Of a stretch of 64,000 nucleotides of DNA, positions 23,833-31,718 are shown piece by piece. Made by a program: the position numbers and the translations under genes. Position 1 is the stretch's first letter, and every line of letters starts with the position of its first letter. The notes beneath the pieces are model-generated. The model saw nothing but the letters and a program-made list of their open reading frames with translations, ran no database searches and was not told the origin of the DNA. This DNA is from Escherichia phage cardinal: the sequence record PQ567651.1; one strand, given 5' to 3'.

Positions 23833-24690
23833 ATGACCCAAAAACTATATGAGGATGTAATCGGATTCCTCGAACAAACATCCGAAGAATTTACTCGTGA
23901 AAATGCAAACAAACCTGCAATGATTGTTAATACTCACCGAGATTTACTAGCAGGTATCCTAAGCAAGCACATGGCAATGACCCATATTTTACCTGAAGAT
24001 TTAGCAGAATGGCATAAAAGTGGGTATGGTCACATCCACGATTTAGATTATTTACTCTCACCTTTAACTAATTGTTGCCTGGTAAATTACCAAGATATGC
24101 TTGAGAACGGTTTCCGTATTGGTAATGCACATATTGAAAAACCAAAATCTATCGGTGTAGCGACTACTGTCCTAACTCAAATTATTCAAGCAGTAGCTTC
24201 TAGCCAATATGGTGGACAAACTTGTGCACATGTTGATACTGGGCTTAGTCAATACGTTAAAGCAAGTTTTAATAAAATATATGCCGATGTTGGCGATTAT
24301 GATATTGCTATGCGTATGGTAGATAAACAGGTCTATGATGCAATGCAAACTTTAATCTACCAGGTGAACACTCTAATGAGTGTAAATGGTCAGTCACCTT
24401 TTATAACAATTAGTTTAGGTTTGGATACCTCTGCTTTTGGTAGAATGATCACTAAAAACTACCTAATGGTGCACAAACAAGGATTGGGAAAAGATAGGGT
24501 AACTCCTGTGTTTCCTAAAGTTATCTTCTTCTTGGAAGATGGTGTTAACATGAAAGCTGGCGATCCAAACTATGATTTGAAGCAACTGGCAATGGAGTGT
24601 TGTGCTGAACGCATTTATCCTGATTTTATCTCTGTACCTTTAAACAAAGAAGTTACAGGATCTTCAGATGGTCGCGTCACAAGCATGGGT
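23833..24690 (+). CDS. nrdD: anaerobic ribonucleoside-triphosphate reductase, exon 1
   Basis: Aligns with E. coli NrdD from NENANK...RDLLAGI through GDPNYDLKQLAMEC to ...VTGS...MG; exon ends on U after the Gly codon. Confidence 0.85.
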
Positions 24691-24970
24691 AAACTATAAC
24701 TGCTCATGTAAAATCTGCCTAAACGGGGGAACTCTCAACGAGACAATCCCGTGCTAAACGTAACAGAACTCCCAACACAGAAGAAGGGGGGTACTATTAC
24801 GAAATGCCTAACGACTAGCTGTGATGAATGTAGCAGCGTAGGGTGTAAGCCTATGACACCCCAAATGGTAGACATGCTTTAAGCATGAAGATATAGTCTG
24901 ATCTGCATGGTGACATGCAGCAGCACGTAATGGTGCGGGAGTGGCCTTGCGAGCCACTTTGAACATAATG
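24691..24970 (+). mobile_element. group I self-splicing intron (ORF-less) in nrdD
   Basis: 280 nt separating two NrdD halves that sit in different frames; core element ctaaacgggggaactctc...gacaatcccgtgctaaa closely resembles the phage T4 td/nrd intron core; 5' exon ends in U and intron ends in G. Confidence 0.75.
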
Positions 24971-25912
24971 TGTAGAAGTTTCTTGTCATACTATGCAACA
25001 GAGCAAGGTGAAAAATATGATGGTCGTTTCAACTTAGGCGTAGTTTCTTTAAACTTACCTATCATTGCAGCAGAGTCCCGTGAAAAGGGCATCTTATTTA
25101 CTGAACTGTTGGAACAACATATGGAGATGGCGTATAAGGCACATATGCTACGTGTTAACCGTATTAGACATACCAAAGCATCTCAAAACCCTACATTGTT
25201 TATGGAAGGGGCTTTAGCTCGACTAGAAGCTAATGAAGAGATTGGTAAACTATTTGAAGGTGGTTATGCCTCTATTAGTATCGGTTATGTAGGTTTAGCA
25301 GAAGCTATGGAGATTTTATACCCAAATAACACCAATCCAAAAGCAATGGGTAAAAACATCCTTCAATATATGAAGGATATCTGTTGCACATTTAAAGAAC
25401 GTTCTGGTTTAGCTTTTAGTTTGTATGGAACACCAGCAGAATCCTTGTGCTATAAATTTGCCAAAGCGTTAAATGATCGCTATCCTGGCTCTATTGATCG
25501 TGACTATTTGACAAACTCTTTCCATCAACCTGTATGGATGCACACTACCCCGTTCCAAAAGTGGGATTATGAGGAAGGTTTTGCACAAATTAGTAATGGT
25601 GGGAACATAGGTTATGTAGAAACACCAAACCTTAAAAATAACTTGCAAGCACTGGAAACTCTTGTAGATTATGCCTACAATAAAATTCCTTATTTTGGCG
25701 TGAACCAACCTGTAGATCAGTGTTTCAAATGTGGTTTTCATGGTGAATTTAAGGCAACAGCTAAAGGCTTCGAGTGTCCAAGTTGTGGAAATCATGAAGA
25801 AGAATCCATATCTGTGATCAGAAGAGTGTCAGGATACCTTTCTGCTCCTAACTCTCGCCCTTATAATAAAGGTAAGATGCAAGAGGTACTAGAAAGGGAG
25901 AAACACTTTTGA
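24971..25912 (+). CDS. nrdD: anaerobic ribonucleoside-triphosphate reductase, exon 2
   Basis: Begins CRSFLS (E. coli MGCRSFLG), contains NLGVVSLNLP, the C..C...C..C zinc ribbon and glycyl-radical motif RRVSGYL. Confidence 0.85.
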   Translation, partial: CRSFLSYYATEQGEKYDGRFNLGVVSLNLPIIAAESREKGILFTELLEQHMEMAYKAHMLRVNRIRHTKASQNPTLFMEGALARLEANEEIGKLFEGGYASISIGYVGLAEAMEILYPNNTNPKAMGKNILQYMKDICCTFKERSGLAFSLYGTPAESLCYKFAKALNDRYPGSIDRDYLTNSFHQPVWMHTTPFQKWDYEEGFAQISNGGNIGYVETPNLKNNLQALETLVDYAYNKIPYFGVNQPVDQCFKCGFHGEFKATAKGFECPSCGNHEEESISVIRRVSGYLSAPNSRPYNKGKMQEVLEREKHF

Positions 25913-26399: not shown

Positions 26400-27560
26400 A
26401 TGTTTACAGTATTCGGCAATCAAATCTTTCTGCGTCAGAAATCTGGTACAGATATTGAAGAAATTCCAGCAGGAACTTTTGGTGTAGGTGTTACTCAAAG
26501 TGGTGAGTTCTTCCTGTATCCTAAAAACGATATGGAAGTCCCTTCAGTAACATACGGTGATACTGATGATAAATCAGAACGTATTATCAAAACGTTCCTT
26601 AGCCGCAAAGGTAAAAACACAGGTGTTCTCCTTGAAGGTACGAAAGGTAGCGGTAAAACTTTGCAAGCTAAAATGCTGTCTTCTGCTCTTCGTGAAATGG
26701 GTATTCCTACTATTTCTATCGGTAGTGCTTTTAATGGTGAAGGCTTTATCAATTTTATGTCTAAAATCACACAACCTGTGATGATTATGATCGATGAATT
26801 TGATAAACTGTATGCTGAAAAAGATGCACAAGATGGTTTGCTTACCCTGCTGGATGGTGTTGGTGGCTACGACAAACTGTTTGTATTGACTAAAAATGAT
26901 GGTTATGTATCAGAATTTTTGCGTAATCGTCCTAGCCGTATTTTCTACAGTTTTAGCTATAAGAAACTACCTAAAGCTACTATGGATGATTATCTGGCTA
27001 AAAATCTGGAGAACAAAGCCTTCTTACCAGACTTTGAAACGCTTTATAATCTCTCCGTGGATTTGAACTTTGATATTGTTCAGTCATTAGTAGAAGAACT
27101 TAACCGTTACCCTAATGACAAATTTTCTGATGCACTTGCACTAATGGGTATCAGTATTACTGAACACCGCTATGCTGCAAAAGAGGTTAAACTTCTGAAA
27201 GTTAACGGTGTAGATCGTACAGGAGATGTTTCGGCAGATACCGATATTGACGGTATGACAGCACAAGGTTTGTTTAGTGGTAATCGTTATGTTGTAGCTG
27301 TAGACCATAAACTAGGTGAAGAGCATCTTCCTGAAATGGAAGGGATCGTTACCGTAGAAGATAAAGATGAAGAAGGTGACTACTACTGGGGTGTAGACCG
27401 TATCTTGCTAACGTATGATGAAAAACACATCCGTACAATGGGTGGTGACGGTTATCACTTTATGTTCACCGATGATAAAGGTAACAACATTGAAGTTGTT
27501 ATTAAAAACAAAGAACGTAAAAACTACACAGAGTATGTGTTTGGTGGTCGTTCTTACTAA
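26400..27560 (+). CDS. AAA-type P-loop ATPase (paralog of 10260..11294)
   Basis: Walker A GTKGSGKT, Walker B MIMIDEFDK, LLTLLDG and LTKN blocks shared with the minus-strand paralog. Confidence 0.65.
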   Translation: MFTVFGNQIFLRQKSGTDIEEIPAGTFGVGVTQSGEFFLYPKNDMEVPSVTYGDTDDKSERIIKTFLSRKGKNTGVLLEGTKGSGKTLQAKMLSSALREMGIPTISIGSAFNGEGFINFMSKITQPVMIMIDEFDKLYAEKDAQDGLLTLLDGVGGYDKLFVLTKNDGYVSEFLRNRPSRIFYSFSYKKLPKATMDDYLAKNLENKAFLPDFETLYNLSVDLNFDIVQSLVEELNRYPNDKFSDALALMGISITEHRYAAKEVKLLKVNGVDRTGDVSADTDIDGMTAQGLFSGNRYVVAVDHKLGEEHLPEMEGIVTVEDKDEEGDYYWGVDRILLTYDEKHIRTMGGDGYHFMFTDDKGNNIEVVIKNKERKNYTEYVFGGRSY

Positions 27561-27566
27561 GTGATA

Positions 27567-27593
27567 AAAGGAGGCGAAAGCCTCCTTTATTTA
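27567..27593 (+). terminator. intrinsic terminator
   Basis: aaaggaggc-gaaa-gcctccttt followed by atttat. Confidence 0.5.
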
Positions 27594-27594
27594 T

Positions 27595-27798
27595 ATGGAG
27601 GGTATTATGGATCATTATTTTGTTTTTAAAGATAAAGTTGATACAGCAGGTGGTCACGTTGCTAAAAATGATCGTGACATTAAAGAAGTATTAGGAGATC
27701 TGATTAACATTTTAGAACAAAAAGAGTTGCTTTTAGATAAGGATATTGCTAGACTTCTTGGTGTGGGGATAAGTGATATACAAAGATTACCATTCTAA
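27595..27798 (+). CDS. hypothetical small protein
   Basis: 67-aa ORF. Confidence 0.4.
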   Translation: MEGIMDHYFVFKDKVDTAGGHVAKNDRDIKEVLGDLINILEQKELLLDKDIARLLGVGISDIQRLPF

Positions 27799-27967
27799 AG
27801 GGGAAGAAAATGCTTACAGATGATGAATATAAAGCTATCCAAGAAAAACTAACGGAGCTTGAAATTCTTGCTGTCAATATTAAAGATCAATCACATGCTG
27901 GAAAGTTACTACATCAAGAGATCAATAAAATTAAGCAGATGATATTCTTTTGGACGGAGGATTAAAA

Positions 27968-28624
27968 ATGACTGTTAAGCATATTTCTTTTGATGTATGG
28001 AACACTCTTATTACTGCTAATCCTTTGTATGCAGAAGAGCGCAACAAGGTAATTGCCGAGTATGCCTCTTGTTCTGAGGCAGAAGCAGCAACTGTATATA
28101 AAGAAGTAAAAACTCTCCTGGATTTAAGAGCAGAAAAAGGCATTTGTGGAACATCTAGAAATGCTTGGGAAACACTTTCTGCTCATTTGAACATTGATCT
28201 TGATAAAGTAGATGGGTTAAAAAGAGACTGTTTAGCAATGTTTATAAAACATCCTCCAATATTAAACCCTGAACTTTGCAAGAAGTTGGAAGAGCTAAGT
28301 TCAACCTATTCTTTGAGTATTAAAAGCAATACCAATTTTGTACCTGGTAGTTTCTTAGCTGTATATTCTGGCTTGACAAAATTACCATTTGACTTTATGC
28401 ATTTTTCTGATGAGTTTTGCTTGTGTAAACCAGATCCCAGGTTTTTTAAACTCTCTTTTGATGAAATGGTAACGTTTGATCTCGCACCAGAGGAGATCTT
28501 ACACGTTGGAGATAGTTTGATCTATGATGGAAAAGCTGTTGACATAGGGATGAAGTTCTGTCATATTATTAATCCAGAAGACTTGTTGGCTAAACTTAAA
28601 AAAGAGGAACTTATTAATGCGTAA
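27968..28624 (+). CDS. HAD-superfamily hydrolase-like protein with atypical motif I
   Basis: Motif I ISFDVWNTL (Asp nucleophile, but Trp where the second Asp is expected), motif III CKPDPRFF, motif IV HVGDSLIYDGKAVD. Confidence 0.55.
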   Translation: MTVKHISFDVWNTLITANPLYAEERNKVIAEYASCSEAEAATVYKEVKTLLDLRAEKGICGTSRNAWETLSAHLNIDLDKVDGLKRDCLAMFIKHPPILNPELCKKLEELSSTYSLSIKSNTNFVPGSFLAVYSGLTKLPFDFMHFSDEFCLCKPDPRFFKLSFDEMVTFDLAPEEILHVGDSLIYDGKAVDIGMKFCHIINPEDLLAKLKKEELINA

Positions 28625-29474
28625 TCAAATTCAACATTTTGCTAATATTTTTACTAACCTGAAGGAAGCAAAATTTAACATTGCAGATTATTCCAAGCTA
28701 AAGTTTGGTAGTAACCAGGCAGCAAAAAGAATGGGGCGCATTCTGGCTGAAAGTTTCTTTTCCAAGTATGAAGAACGACTGGTAAATGAAAGTTTTGTTG
28801 TTATTCCATCTCCATATAACTATGTGAAAAATGCAGCTACAGTGTTATCTGAACATTTTGTAGATCACCTCAACTACCTAATCTCTATCAAAGGAGGTAA
28901 AGCAGTGGAGTGGGATATCGTTCATCGTAAAGTGAGCTATATCAATGATTATGGATTTCTTAGCAAAGAAGATCGTAAGGCTTTGATCGATGGTGACACT
29001 TTCTCTATCAATCGTGATTTCTGGGGTAATAAAACTCTGATTTTCATTGATGATGTTAATATTACAGGAACGCACGAAGAAAAACTTATTGAAATTTTAG
29101 ACAAAGAAGGTGTTGAAAACGATACGTTTTTCCTGTACTTTGCAAAGTATGAAGGTACAGAAGCCAACACCGAAGCTGCACTTAACTTCAACTATATCAA
29201 TAACCTGGCAGCTTTTATTAAAATGATTAAGCAAGAAACTGATGCTAAATGTTTGGTTCGTCCTATTAAGTATCTAATGAGTCAAAGCGAAGTTGATTTT
29301 AAAATTGCACTTTCACAGCTTCCTTTGTATTATGTAGAACAACTGTTCTTTGGTTGCCTTGCAGAAGGCTACAATAACATTGAAAAATATAAAGAGAACT
29401 TTGATTTCCTGCGTCAATTTTTTGAAAGCAACATTATCAACAAATCTAATGTTAAAGGGGATTATTATGTCTAA
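28617..29474 (+). CDS. phosphoribosyltransferase (PRTase type I) domain protein
   Basis: PRPP-binding loop LIFIDDVNITGTH (hydrophobic-DD-xx-TG-T); overlaps the HAD gene stop, so probably co-translated. Confidence 0.55.
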   Translation: MRNQIQHFANIFTNLKEAKFNIADYSKLKFGSNQAAKRMGRILAESFFSKYEERLVNESFVVIPSPYNYVKNAATVLSEHFVDHLNYLISIKGGKAVEWDIVHRKVSYINDYGFLSKEDRKALIDGDTFSINRDFWGNKTLIFIDDVNITGTHEEKLIEILDKEGVENDTFFLYFAKYEGTEANTEAALNFNYINNLAAFIKMIKQETDAKCLVRPIKYLMSQSEVDFKIALSQLPLYYVEQLFFGCLAEGYNNIEKYKENFDFLRQFFESNIINKSNVKGDYYV

Positions 29475-30183
29475 TAAAGTAATGACTTTCGGAGATCCTA
29501 TCACCAATATTACAGAAAAAGATTTTGGGCGTGTAGCAACAGATAAAGATGGTGTCTTAAGAATTCGTGTACAAGGTATTACAGCACAGGATGAATATGC
29601 TGTGTATGTTTCAGGTCTTAACTATATTGATGATCGCATTACACAAAACTTTGCACTGATCGGTGGTGTAGAGAAAATGTATTGGGAAGATGAAATTGTA
29701 ACAAGTTATCCGGCAGGTATCATTGAGGTATACGGTGATCTTTTAGCAGCAGCCGAGAGAGGCGATATAGACGCTATAGCACACTGCTGTAACTGTTTTT
29801 GCACTATGGGTAGTGGTATTGCACCAAAAATTAAAAGCAAGTGGCCTGGTGCGTTTAAAGCAGATTGTGCCACTAAACGTGGTGATTATAAAAAATTAGG
29901 TACGTTTACCAAATATACAGAAAACAATTTGACAATTTATAATTTATATGGACAATATGGTTATAGTCGTCGTGAGGAAGGTAAGCGTGACCTGAATTAT
30001 GAAGCTATCTACAATGCGTTAGATAGTATGGGAGACGATGTTGTATCTTCAGGCGGTAAAGTTGTAGGTTTACCGATGCTGGGTTGTGGTTTGGCTGGAG
30101 GGTCTTGGAATATTGTAAAACTTATGATCGAAGAAACTCTAGTAAACAAAGGTTTAAATGTAATTGTTTACAAACTGAAATAA
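29467..30183 (+). CDS. macrodomain protein (TARG1/DarG-like), putative ADP-ribosyl hydrolase
   Basis: C-terminal ~150 aa align with human TARG1 as recalled: AIAHCCNCFCTMGSGIAPKIKSKW vs [23 protein letters not shown], and VGLPMLGCGLAGGSWNIVKLMIEETL...VIVYKL vs [26 protein letters not shown]...ITVYTL; N-terminal ~90 aa unassigned. Confidence 0.65.
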   Translation: MSNKVMTFGDPITNITEKDFGRVATDKDGVLRIRVQGITAQDEYAVYVSGLNYIDDRITQNFALIGGVEKMYWEDEIVTSYPAGIIEVYGDLLAAAERGDIDAIAHCCNCFCTMGSGIAPKIKSKWPGAFKADCATKRGDYKKLGTFTKYTENNLTIYNLYGQYGYSRREEGKRDLNYEAIYNALDSMGDDVVSSGGKVVGLPMLGCGLAGGSWNIVKLMIEETLVNKGLNVIVYKLK

Positions 30184-30192
30184 GGAGAAAGT

Positions 30193-30399
30193 ATGGCAGG
30201 TGTTTTAGCAGTATTAGGTTGTTTTATTGTTGTGTTTTTGATTGTGTTAATCCCTAGTTGGCTGCTGCTTTTAGCATACAACTATATGATTGACATTATC
30301 GGTTTAGACTGGCATCATGTTCCTGTAACGTTTTGGAGTGTAGTCTGTGTGACGTTCATTCTTGCGGTACTTCGTGGTATCTTTCAATCTAACAAATAA
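30193..30399 (+). CDS. hypothetical small membrane protein
   Basis: 68 aa, two hydrophobic helices. Confidence 0.4.
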   Translation: MAGVLAVLGCFIVVFLIVLIPSWLLLLAYNYMIDIIGLDWHHVPVTFWSVVCVTFILAVLRGIFQSNK

Positions 30400-30426
30400 G
30401 AGAGGATTTTTATATGCGTAAAGTAA

Positions 30427-30663
30427 ATGTTGAAGTGCTTGAAAAAATTTAGAAACACTCGTGATTGTACTATCGGCAAGGTTTACGAGGCTATTCTCCT
30501 TGAAGATGGAGATCAAGTTCCTGCCCCGTATCACGCCTTTAATGGTCAGATTAGCAAAGTGGAAGGTGGTATTGCTATTTGCTTTATTGATGACGTAGGT
30601 GATGCTGTAGCTTTCCCTATCATTAACAAAGAAGATAAACTTAAAATTACAGAACTGAACTAG
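30427..30663 (+). CDS. hypothetical small protein
   Basis: 78-aa ORF; start uncertain (a 12-codon ORF with a better RBS lies just upstream in another frame). Confidence 0.35.
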   Translation: MLKCLKKFRNTRDCTIGKVYEAILLEDGDQVPAPYHAFNGQISKVEGGIAICFIDDVGDAVAFPIINKEDKLKITELN

Positions 30664-30740
30664 TTGACTTTCTTTAAAAACAGTTTATAGTATAAGACAT
30701 AGAGCGGAGGATTGTCCTCCGCATTAAAGAGGAGAAAAGA

Positions 30741-31718
30741 ATGCAACTGGGTTTCCCAATTATTGATGTGGTTGTTTTAGTGGGTATTTTAGTCTTGTCG
30801 ATTTGTATTGACTTCTTTGGACACAGAGAAAACAAAGAAATTTCATTTAAATCGGCAGTTGGTTGGTCAATTTTCTGGATTGGAGTATCATTAGCCTACT
30901 ATGGTTTTGTATACTTCCAACACGGTGCTGATTTTGCGAGCTTGTTCTTGAGTGGGTATGTGTTGGAGAAATCTCTTTCTGTAGATAACTTAGTAGTATT
31001 TGTGGCAGTATTCGCAAGTTTTGGTATTAAAAGCACACACTTGCAACACAAGATTCTACTTTGGGGTATTGCAGGTGCGATTGTCTTCCGAGGTGTGTTT
31101 GTAGCAGTAGGCACTTACTTGTTGAGTTTGGGCTGGTATGTTAATATCTTCTTCGGTGCTGTCATCCTTTTCTGTGCGGCTAAAATGGTATTCGCTGGAG
31201 ATAATGATGCAGAAGTTGATTACTCTAAACACTGGGCTACTCGCATTGTTCGTAAGCTGTTCCCTGTATCTGATCAGATGGATGGTGAGAAGTTCTTCAC
31301 AATCAAAAATGGTGTTCGTGTAGCAACTCCGGCTCTGGTTTGTGTGTTTGTAATGGAAATGGTTGACGTAATCTTTGCAGTAGACTCTGTTCCAGCAGTA
31401 ATTGCAGTGACACAAGAACCTCTGCTTGTATTTTCTTCGATGCTCTGTGCAATCTTAGGTTTACGTGCTCTGTTCTTTGTTCTTAGTGTTGCACTGAAGT
31501 ATTTGGTTCATCTGGAGAAAGCAGTTATCGTAGTCCTGGTATTTGTGGGTGCAAAACTGATGTATCATCCGTTTGCAGAAACTCTGCACGCAAAAATGAG
31601 TTTCCTGCCAGCACACATTGATCCGACGATCAGTATGTATATTGTGTTAGGTACTCTTGGGTTGGGTGTTGTTGCAAGTTTAATCTTCCCTGAAAAAGAA
31701 GATCAGACTGTTGCTTAA
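30741..31718 (+). CDS. TerC-family integral membrane protein
   Basis: Multiple transmembrane helices and both TerC signature repeats: LEKSLSVDNLVVFVAVF and MVDVIFAVDSVPAVIAVT. Confidence 0.75.
   Translation: MQLGFPIIDVVVLVGILVLSICIDFFGHRENKEISFKSAVGWSIFWIGVSLAYYGFVYFQHGADFASLFLSGYVLEKSLSVDNLVVFVAVFASFGIKSTHLQHKILLWGIAGAIVFRGVFVAVGTYLLSLGWYVNIFFGAVILFCAAKMVFAGDNDAEVDYSKHWATRIVRKLFPVSDQMDGEKFFTIKNGVRVATPALVCVFVMEMVDVIFAVDSVPAVIAVTQEPLLVFSSMLCAILGLRALFFVLSVALKYLVHLEKAVIVVLVFVGAKLMYHPFAETLHAKMSFLPAHIDPTISMYIVLGTLGLGVVASLIFPEKEDQTVA

Follow-up and report, generated by a model that had tools for sequence, protein, structure and literature searches.

A HAD-IA hydrolase gene of Escherichia phage cardinal with tryptophan at the general acid/base position of motif I, coupled to a phosphoribosyltransferase gene

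[quoted passage not shown] In the window, that is, the whole stretch of 64,000 nucleotides that was analysed, its open reading frame (ORF) runs on the + strand from an ATG at 27968 to a TAA at 28622-28624, specifying 218 residues, with a GGAGG Shine-Dalgarno sequence 9 nt 5' of the start. Over positions 27500-30300, phi92-like coliphages (Justusliebigvirus, Stephanstirmvirinae) are 98-99% identical to the window, the best match being Escherichia phage EmilieFrey, where the HAD gene is annotated as a 'putative HAD-like superfamily protein'. Part of this is already known: dozens of phage genomes carry the gene with a HAD or hydrolase annotation, computational work has described the PRTase+HAD pairing, and the Trp-containing motif is found in a PDB entry from 2008 (2OM6) and in an enzyme characterised in 2009. 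The features that define the gene and its partner are the following.

27968-28624, + strand: HAD-IA hydrolase gene of the 'DxWNT' clade, 218 residues
27989-28009, + strand: motif I, FDVWNTL, residues 8-14 (F8-D9-V10-W11-N12-T13-L14), read from the sequence
28010-28267, + strand: helical C1 cap, about residues 15-100, with the clade-specific Arg25, Tyr44, Lys48 and Asp52 (helices of the model and 193 relatives)
28316-28339, + strand: motif II region, SIKSNTNF, with Ser120 and Asn121 (conservation in 193 relatives)
28427-28429, + strand: motif III Lys154, in CKPDP (conservation in 193 relatives)
28508-28528, + strand: motif IV, GDSLIYD, whose Asp182 and Asp187 are the acidic Mg2+-binding pair (conservation in 193 relatives)
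28617-29474, + strand: ComF-like type I phosphoribosyltransferase (PRTase_3), its start overlapping the HAD stop by 8 nt (ATGCGTAA)

A preliminary description of this DNA had read motif I as FDVWNTL, with the nucleophilic Asp retained and Trp at the Asp+2 position, and both its coordinates and its reading proved exact: the nucleophile, Asp9, is encoded by GAT at 27992-27994, and Trp11, at the position of the Asp+2 general acid/base, by TGG at 27998-28000. No alternative alignment with a canonical DxD exists; the only DxD elsewhere in the protein, D77-L-D79, lies in a variable, non-conserved loop of the helical cap and not at the end of a strand. A sequencing or strain artefact was also ruled out, as 53 phage records contain the protein at 96-100% identity and the whole family has the Trp.

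The assignment to the HAD superfamily, likewise made in the preliminary description, was borne out in two ways. Pfam PF00702 aligns residues 3-187 with profile positions 1-183 and places Asp9 at the motif I nucleophile, with a score (26.4 bits) exactly at the cut-off, and the AlphaFold2 model (pLDDT 96.2, pTM 0.90) displays the HAD strand order with a four-helix C1 cap over residues 19-94 (helices 19-33, 37-56, 63-73 and 78-94). Structure prediction, which had been suggested there as a check, thus excluded the possibility that the protein does not adopt a HAD fold, and both the Rossmannoid core and the inserted C1 helical cap that define membership are present. PHROGs places the protein in phrog_14393 'hydrolase' (E 7e-119), NCBIfam gives only sub-threshold HAD-IA matches (REG-2-like, CTE7, haloacid dehalogenase type II and YjjG), and the HMMER alignment to PDB 2OM6 (PH0253) pairs FDVWNTL with FDVWNTL. 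Among structural neighbours are the C1-capped HAD-IA proteins PH0459 and its designed derivatives, YfnB, NANP, YihX and HDHD3, as well as L-2-haloacid dehalogenases, AlnB and the phosphatase domain of the ribofuranosyltransferase 7SHG. The features of the superfamily, namely the motif I Asp, the motif II Ser/Thr, the motif III Lys and the motif IV acidic pair, are all present, and the Asp+2 acid/base alone is absent.

Two families with known functions were considered and rejected. The YjjG/YfnB pyrimidine 5'-nucleotidase family (TIGR02254) fails on both its cut-off score and the DxD motif, and the L-2-haloacid dehalogenase family (TIGR01428) scores 33.6 bits against a cut-off of 125.4. The second of these bears on a wider possibility, that the protein performs dehalogenase-like carbon chemistry, with Asp9 attacking carbon as in L-2-haloacid dehalogenase, azetidine-2-carboxylate hydrolase and cis-epoxysuccinate hydrolase, all of which have a residue other than Asp at Asp+2. 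Dehalogenases carry Ser/Asn at the motif IV position and need no metal, whereas the Mg2+-binding GDxxxxD motif IV with Asp182 and Asp187 is invariant in the relatives of the phage protein. Moreover, PH1655 (2HOQ), which comes next after 2OM6 among sequence relatives of solved structure, carries the canonical FFDLDDTL motif, and the archaeal protein TON_0002, which shares the Trp motif and is described below, is a metal-dependent phosphohydrolase. Taken with the low TIGR01428 score, these points leave carbon chemistry with very little credence.

The conservation of Trp11 was assessed with a profile search over 1.84 billion cluster representatives, which gave 3,745 matches at E<=1e-3 and 450 at E<=1e-30; 193 diverged relatives from this search, mostly representatives of 50%-identity clusters, formed the alignment. 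Position 11 is Trp in 192 sequences and Tyr in one. Ser120, Asn121, Gly127, Ser147, Lys154, Pro155, Gly181, Asp182, Asp187 and Arg25 are each invariant (193/193), and D9, K48 and H179 are retained in 192/193, T13 in 191/193, N123 and F124 in 186/193 each, Y44 and D52 in 184/193 each, and N12 in 180/193. A closer set of 22 homologues, at 33-56% identity, retains H5, S7, F8, D9, V10, W11, T13 and L14. At loci that were found from the PRTase, and hence independently of the HAD motif, motif I has Trp in 18/19 HADs and Tyr in the remaining one. Trp11 is therefore conserved as strictly as the catalytic residues, and is a clade signature rather than a sign of decay or a quirk of the phage protein; equally strict selection acts on the nucleophile, on Ser/Asn of motif II, on Lys of motif III and on the Mg2+ ligands of motif IV. 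By the same counts the clade is large and already in existence (the 450 cluster representatives at E<=1e-30), and the canonical motif of PH1655 shows the Trp to be derived from a DxD ancestor.

This pattern is also what has to be set against the idea of a pseudo-phosphatase, in which Trp11 would have killed turnover and the protein would assist the PRTase without catalysis, by binding a ligand or by regulation. The protein does lack the residue by which both chemical steps are normally driven, and the HAD evolves faster than its neighbours (about 51% identity against about 80% for the PRTase when two related loci, L072 and L073, are compared). However, retention of the nucleophile, the Lys, the Ser/Asn and both Mg2+ ligands across 193 diverged sequences, with Asp9 lost in only one of them, is unexpected for a dead enzyme, and TON_0002, with the same motif, is active. 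A dead partner was thus considered highly improbable.

Some observations on individual relatives deserve mention. The only sequence without the nucleophile is a metagenomic protein of 224 residues (P0189), which reads SFGVWNTL (Asp to Gly) and keeps the Trp and the other motifs; either inactivation of this copy or a sequencing error may account for it. No HAD-PRTase fusion was found in the top 150 cluster representatives; a protein of 445 residues (P0149) has a GIY-YIG/NUMOD3 homing-endonuclease module at the N-terminus of a DxW HAD (HISLDFWNTL), either a fusion or a mis-call (homing endonucleases evidently target the HAD locus in some phages), and the other long protein has an N-terminal extension of no recognised kind. 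In the comparison of the conserved block (26400-31718) with L072 and L073, the HAD is the fastest-evolving gene (50-51% identity), followed by the macro-domain gene (64-67%), TerC (69-70%), the AAA ATPase (73-74%) and the PRTase (81% and 79%), and it nevertheless retains Trp11 and all of the catalytic residues.

The gene immediately downstream encodes a protein of family PF15610, 'PRTase ComF-like' (E 1e-41), with an intact loop for phosphoribosyl pyrophosphate (PRPP), IFIDDVNITGTHE; its model, predicted with database homologues (pLDDT 91), shows a type I PRTase extended by helices at the C-terminus. The preliminary description had treated the HAD and the PRTase as a unit, and this view held up well. 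The two genes overlap by 8 nt, a HAD lies immediately upstream in 19/21 viral loci from IMG/VR that were recovered with the PRTase as seed, and a PRTase lies immediately downstream in 13/13 rhizobial loci recovered by HAD motifs, plus one locus from a metagenome-assembled genome. The same adjacency was found in metagenomic contigs (L062, L063 and L091-L093), on plasmid pRL10, and in Caulobacter, Brevundimonas, Rhizobium, Klebsiella and Xanthomonas phages. Judging from gene order, HAD and PRTase are a translationally coupled two-gene cassette in which the PRTase is the only universal neighbour. When the phage HAD was searched by tblastn against 72,556 plasmids, matches appeared on 7 rhizobial plasmids only and included no HAD of a tellurite-resistance (ter) operon.

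The surroundings of the pair elsewhere gave several leads. PADLOC returned no match for the HAD, the PRTase or TerC, and membership in a known defence system was rejected on this ground and because the HAD of DefensePredictor DS-9 pairs with a metallophosphatase and not with a PRTase. A ClpP-family protease gene occurs within a few kb of the pair in five loci (L003, L076, L077, L093 and L094). At the one on a Sinorhizobium chromosome, genes for a HipA-like kinase and a large NTPase/TPR protein are also close to the pair, a neighbourhood that is a possible defence island. In Rhizobium phages (RHph_Y65, L069, 4070-6406) the pair is followed by one small ORF and then by a bifunctional nicotinamide mononucleotide (NMN) adenylyltransferase/Nudix gene, a hint that in these phages it may be connected with the metabolism of pyridine nucleotides. 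A reading of the cassette as NAD salvage, drawn from this gene and from the macro-domain neighbour described below, was kept as a lead only, the neighbours being lineage-specific.

The chemical significance of the Trp can be approached from enzymes that have lost the same residue. In textbook HAD phosphatases, Asp+2 drives both half-reactions. Replacement of the equivalent residue in T4 Pnkp (D167N/A) abolishes the 2'- and 3'-phosphomonoesterase activities, while the Asp165-dependent attack on 2',3'-cyclic phosphate persists (PMC3592404). E. coli YihX (PDB 8PNO) reads FDLGNV, with Gly at Asp+2 and the same SNTN in motif II as the phage HAD, and was deposited as an alpha-D-glucose-1-phosphate phosphatase, which counts against a strict rule. 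From such comparisons, altered chemistry or an altered substrate, as the preliminary description proposed, is a reasonable inference. It also held the Trp to be relevant to the metabolite made by the HAD/PRTase pair; taken alone, this residue does not yet identify that metabolite.

A second line of evidence came from archaea. Archaea, among them Thermococcales and Desulfurococcales, also have the SFDVWNTL motif; as this very pattern served to retrieve the archaeal loci, they carry it by construction, whereas two of the proteins were found independently by profile search. These are PH0253 of Pyrococcus horikoshii (P0296, the protein of 2OM6) and a protein of T. onnurineus NA1 (P0266; MKLASFDVWNTLL), both reached in a search with a Thermococcus member. 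The latter is the second gene of CP000855.1, adjoining an intein-containing PolB, and on this basis it was identified as TON_0002. PMC9911876, PMC11210485 and PMC9653972 describe TON_0002 (UniProt B6YSF3) as the first inorganic pyrophosphatase (PPase) of the HAD superfamily, preferring Ni2+ over Mg2+. Its values on inorganic pyrophosphate (PPi), as reported in Table 1 of PMC9653972, are a kcat of 0.16 s-1, a Km of 0.35 mM and a kcat/Km of 6.4e2 M-1 s-1, and those of family I PPases in the same table are 1e6 to 1e8 (kcat/Km). Such a feeble activity raises the possibility that PPi may be a promiscuous rather than the real substrate of TON_0002.

The phage protein has the residues that mark the Trp-containing group as a whole, namely hSFDxWNTL with N121, F124, D148, K154-P155 and H179-x-G-D, and the archaeal and the phage/bacterial clades share W11, N12, K48, N121, F124, D148, K154, P155, H179, G181, D182 and D187. 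The archaeal clade differs at R25, Y44, D52, P97 and S120 of the PRTase-linked clade, leaving K48 as the only cap residue in common, and the motif II Ser of the phage HAD is Gly in PH0253 and TON_0002. Identity of these two to the phage protein is 22-29%, and a PRTase neighbour was found at 0/45 archaeal loci. Orthology with the assayed TON_0002 was rejected on the differing cap residues, the missing PRTase neighbour and an identity of 25-29%; TON_0002-type PPase activity is known from the archaeal protein alone. The archaeal and the phage/bacterial proteins are regarded as sister clades that share a catalytic strategy and probably act on different substrates, the latter because R25, Y44 and D52 of the PRTase-linked clade are absent from the archaeal one.

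TON_0002 is nonetheless the main reason to consider that the phage HAD could be a dedicated PPase, hydrolysing the PPi of the adjacent PRTase and so pulling the reversible transfer forward, with a phosphate that can leave without a general acid. PRTases do release PPi. TON_0002, the founding HAD-type PPase (PMC9911876, PMC11210485), has the same SFDVWNTL, activated phosphates can still react when Asp+2 is lost (PMC3592404), and R25 and K48, two basic residues invariant in the cap, could hold another phosphate. Against this stand the kcat/Km of TON_0002, orders below the range of family I PPases cited above, and the cap residues Tyr44 and Asp52, which are absent in the archaeal clade and suggest a larger organic substrate. 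E. coli and rhizobia, in addition, possess an efficient housekeeping PPase, so that a strictly conserved private enzyme is hard to justify. A dedicated PPase was judged unlikely, while having some claim to consideration.

The slow turnover of TON_0002 (0.16 s-1) admits another explanation, in which the protein acts as a slow 'timer' or as a phosphotransferase or mutase: in the absence of a general base, the aspartyl-phosphate would persist and be handed not to water but to an acceptor, for instance a ribose in the substrate or product of the PRTase. P-type ATPases, which have Thr at Asp+2, form a long-lived aspartyl-phosphate of this kind. In the phage family all of the phosphoryl-transfer machinery is invariant and the acid/base alone is missing, and the bulky Trp at the core-cap interface could conceivably keep water out. 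On the other hand, the conserved neighbourhood shows no evident kinase-like or mutase-like partner or donor, the PRTase alone being universal, and known HAD mutases retain Asp+2. This explanation was regarded as improbable.

What the evidence favours, with somewhat better than an even chance in our estimation, is that the HAD is an active phosphohydrolase working in a pathway with the PRTase. From the observed fold, motifs, conservation and gene linkage, we infer a catalytically competent, Mg2+-dependent, C1-capped HAD-IA phosphohydrolase belonging to a distinct clade with motif I SFDxWNTL. In the proposed scheme, the PRTase would use PRPP to phosphoribosylate a base or other nucleophile, with release of PPi, and the HAD would then remove a phosphate from the product or a by-product of the PRTase, yielding a riboside-like small molecule. 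The phosphoryl group attacked by Asp9 might come from an activated donor (PPi, a diphosphate, or a strained or anomeric phosphate) or, in a second option, from a 5'-phosphomonoester whose leaving group would be protonated by Tyr44, Lys48, Asp52 or Arg25, or by the substrate itself. The spacing of Y44, K48 and D52 (i, i+4, i+8) would place them on one face of cap helix 2, with Arg25 on helix 1, and Trp11, where core and cap meet, might form an aromatic wall or offer a surface for stacking. An activated donor or another source of the proton seems most likely because there is no enzymic general acid at Asp+2. Taken together, the Pnkp D167 mutants, TON_0002 and YihX point to a substrate with a leaving group that needs little protonation, candidates being PPi, a diphosphate, or an anomeric or cyclic phosphate; otherwise another group would have to supply the proton.

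Around the HAD-PRTase cassette, the window contains the following further features.

27595-27965, + strand: two small ORFs (67 and 51 residues) directly 5' of the HAD gene, the 67-residue one conserved in 5 related loci
29467-30183, + strand (start annotated at 29449 in EmilieFrey): macro-domain protein, TARG1/DarG-like (Pfam Macro; DarG in NCBIfam and PADLOC; PDB 5e3b, 2fg1 and OARD1)
30741-31718, + strand: TerC-family integral membrane protein (Pfam PF03741, E 3e-38)

The two small ORFs are preceded by a terminator-like hairpin at 27567-27588 and are probably the start of the HAD transcription unit. On the other side, the macro-domain gene starts with the ATG at 29467 and shares 8 nt (ATGTCTAA) with the end of the PRTase gene, to which it is translationally coupled; the protein is related to TARG1/OARD1 and to the DarG antitoxin, has an N-terminal extension of about 85 residues, and could act as an anti-DarT or ADP-ribose-processing counter-defence. 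The TerC gene lies 560 nt further downstream, and its product is 47-49% identical to TerC proteins encoded in ter operons on plasmids. Just 5' of the gene are a site resembling a promoter (30664-30691) and a hairpin (30704-30722), which suggest that TerC may be transcribed apart from the HAD-PRTase-macro block. Only phi92-like phages have the macro-domain gene and this TerC together with the pair.

Further upstream, a gene for an AAA-type ATPase (386 residues, phrog_2376; 26400-27560, + strand) ends at the terminator-like hairpin mentioned above, and is conserved together with the block in phi92-like and related phages. Beyond it, a group I intron (RF00028, 72.3 bits, E 2e-18, 24645-24920, + strand) was found in nrdD, the gene for class III ribonucleotide reductase, which has ORFs at 23833-24699 and 24941-25912 and is interrupted at 24645-24976. 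EmilieFrey, collinear apart from this, lacks nucleotides 24691-24976; the inserted segment has no room for a homing-endonuclease ORF, and the intron resembles that of T4 nrdD (sunY).

The presence of TerC connects the cassette with the Ter systems. The primary source of the prediction of Ter biosynthetic modules is reportedly the work of Anantharaman, Iyer and Aravind in 2012. According to PMC11994780, Ter biosynthetic modules of two or five enzymes always include a PRTase and a HAD, and their likely product is a pyrimidine-derived ribonucleoside; phages carry Ter-type modules (PMC7824862), and comparative genomics predicts that the PRTase+HAD pairing makes a ribonucleoside-like metabolite (PMC7824862, PMC11994780). 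A literature search whose reach did not extend to the primary 2012 paper recovered no paper remarking on the Trp at Asp+2. When 29 loci bearing the pair were compared, TerC or DUF475 was near it in 10/29 and TerD in 7/29; clustering of the neighbours placed TerD beside the pair in 7 loci and a DUF475/TerC-family gene in 6 further ones. In one metagenomic contig of 198 kb (L092), the order is TerF-like ... TerC - HAD (FSFDVWNTL) - PRTase - TerD.

These data can be integrated in a more far-reaching proposal. The DxW-HAD and the PRTase might constitute a self-contained two-enzyme pathway of large phages and rhizobial plasmids, whose product, a messenger or antimetabolite of riboside or ribotide type, would be the 'nucleoside-like metabolite' long predicted for Ter systems and would be used with TerC/TerD (and here with the DarG-like macro protein) for superinfection exclusion or counter-defence; the Trp would then reflect a mechanism free of a general acid, acting on a PRPP-derived diphosphate, anomeric or cyclic phosphate and not on an ordinary 5'-monoester. 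As a whole, with all of its parts, this proposal is speculative and distinctly unlikely to be correct. Several points weigh against the favoured reading, that of an active phosphohydrolase in the PRTase pathway. The 5'-phosphomonoester predicted for Ter systems sits uneasily with the protein, as such a substrate normally needs the missing general acid. The sole assayed protein with the DxW motif, TON_0002, is archaeal, only 25-29% identical, lacks a PRTase neighbour and has the feeble PPase activity noted above; R25, Y44 and D52 are not shared with its clade, and the substrates of the two clades, as these residues suggest, probably differ. Finally, no Ter gene lies near the pair in rhizobial L003 and pRL10, both inspected in detail, or in many phage loci.

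The interest of the clade does not depend on that proposal. In at least several hundred sequence clusters, Asp+2 has been replaced by an invariant Trp and every other catalytic residue kept, and for this reason the clade represents a natural experiment in how a HAD may operate without its general acid/base. Its assets so far are the crystal structure 2OM6 and one weak in vitro activity. The HAD-PRTase cassette is, in turn, the simplest form of the Ter-associated module, whose product has been the subject of prediction since 2012, and a two-gene, easily expressed phage cassette offers a practical entry to the question of what that product is.

It remains to compare the cassette with known systems. 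L-2-haloacid dehalogenases (TIGR01428; 1JUD, 1ZRM) share with the phage HAD the HAD-IA architecture, a residue other than Asp at Asp+2 and a weak full-length profile similarity, and differ in that they are without the Mg2+-binding GDxxxxD that the phage protein keeps. AlnB and the phosphatase domain of the polysaccharide ribofuranosyltransferase 7SHG remove the 5'-phosphate after phosphoribosyl transfer, a precedent for the logic proposed here. However, the 7SHG phosphatase domain and AlnB (4EX7) are no closer to the phage HAD than dozens of other HADs, and the associated transferases are not ComF-like type I PRTases. The classical five-enzyme ter module, located upstream of terZABCDE on plasmid Rms139, also has a HAD in a PRTase-containing module beside ter genes; yet that HAD belongs to PF12710 and not to PF00702 and has the canonical VFDFDGTLT, with Asp at +2, and it is accompanied by two PRTases, PRTase_2-TRSP and StiP-PELOTA, and by ATPgrasp_Ter and C-C_Bond_Lyase, where the phage HAD has PRTase_3. 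The PF12710 assignment and the DFDGT motif of the Rms139 protein exclude that the two HADs belong to the same family. The best correspondence is with the two-enzyme version of the Ter-associated biosynthetic module, which the window cassette matches in gene content: a PRTase adjoins a HAD, TerC is present in the window and TerC/TerD lie beside the pair in other phage lineages, and the predicted logic is the same, with a nucleotide made from PRPP and then dephosphorylated to a nucleoside-like product. The difference lies in the distribution of the phage-type pair, which is found also without Ter genes (L003, pRL10 and many phages), as well as in the lineages where they accompany it.

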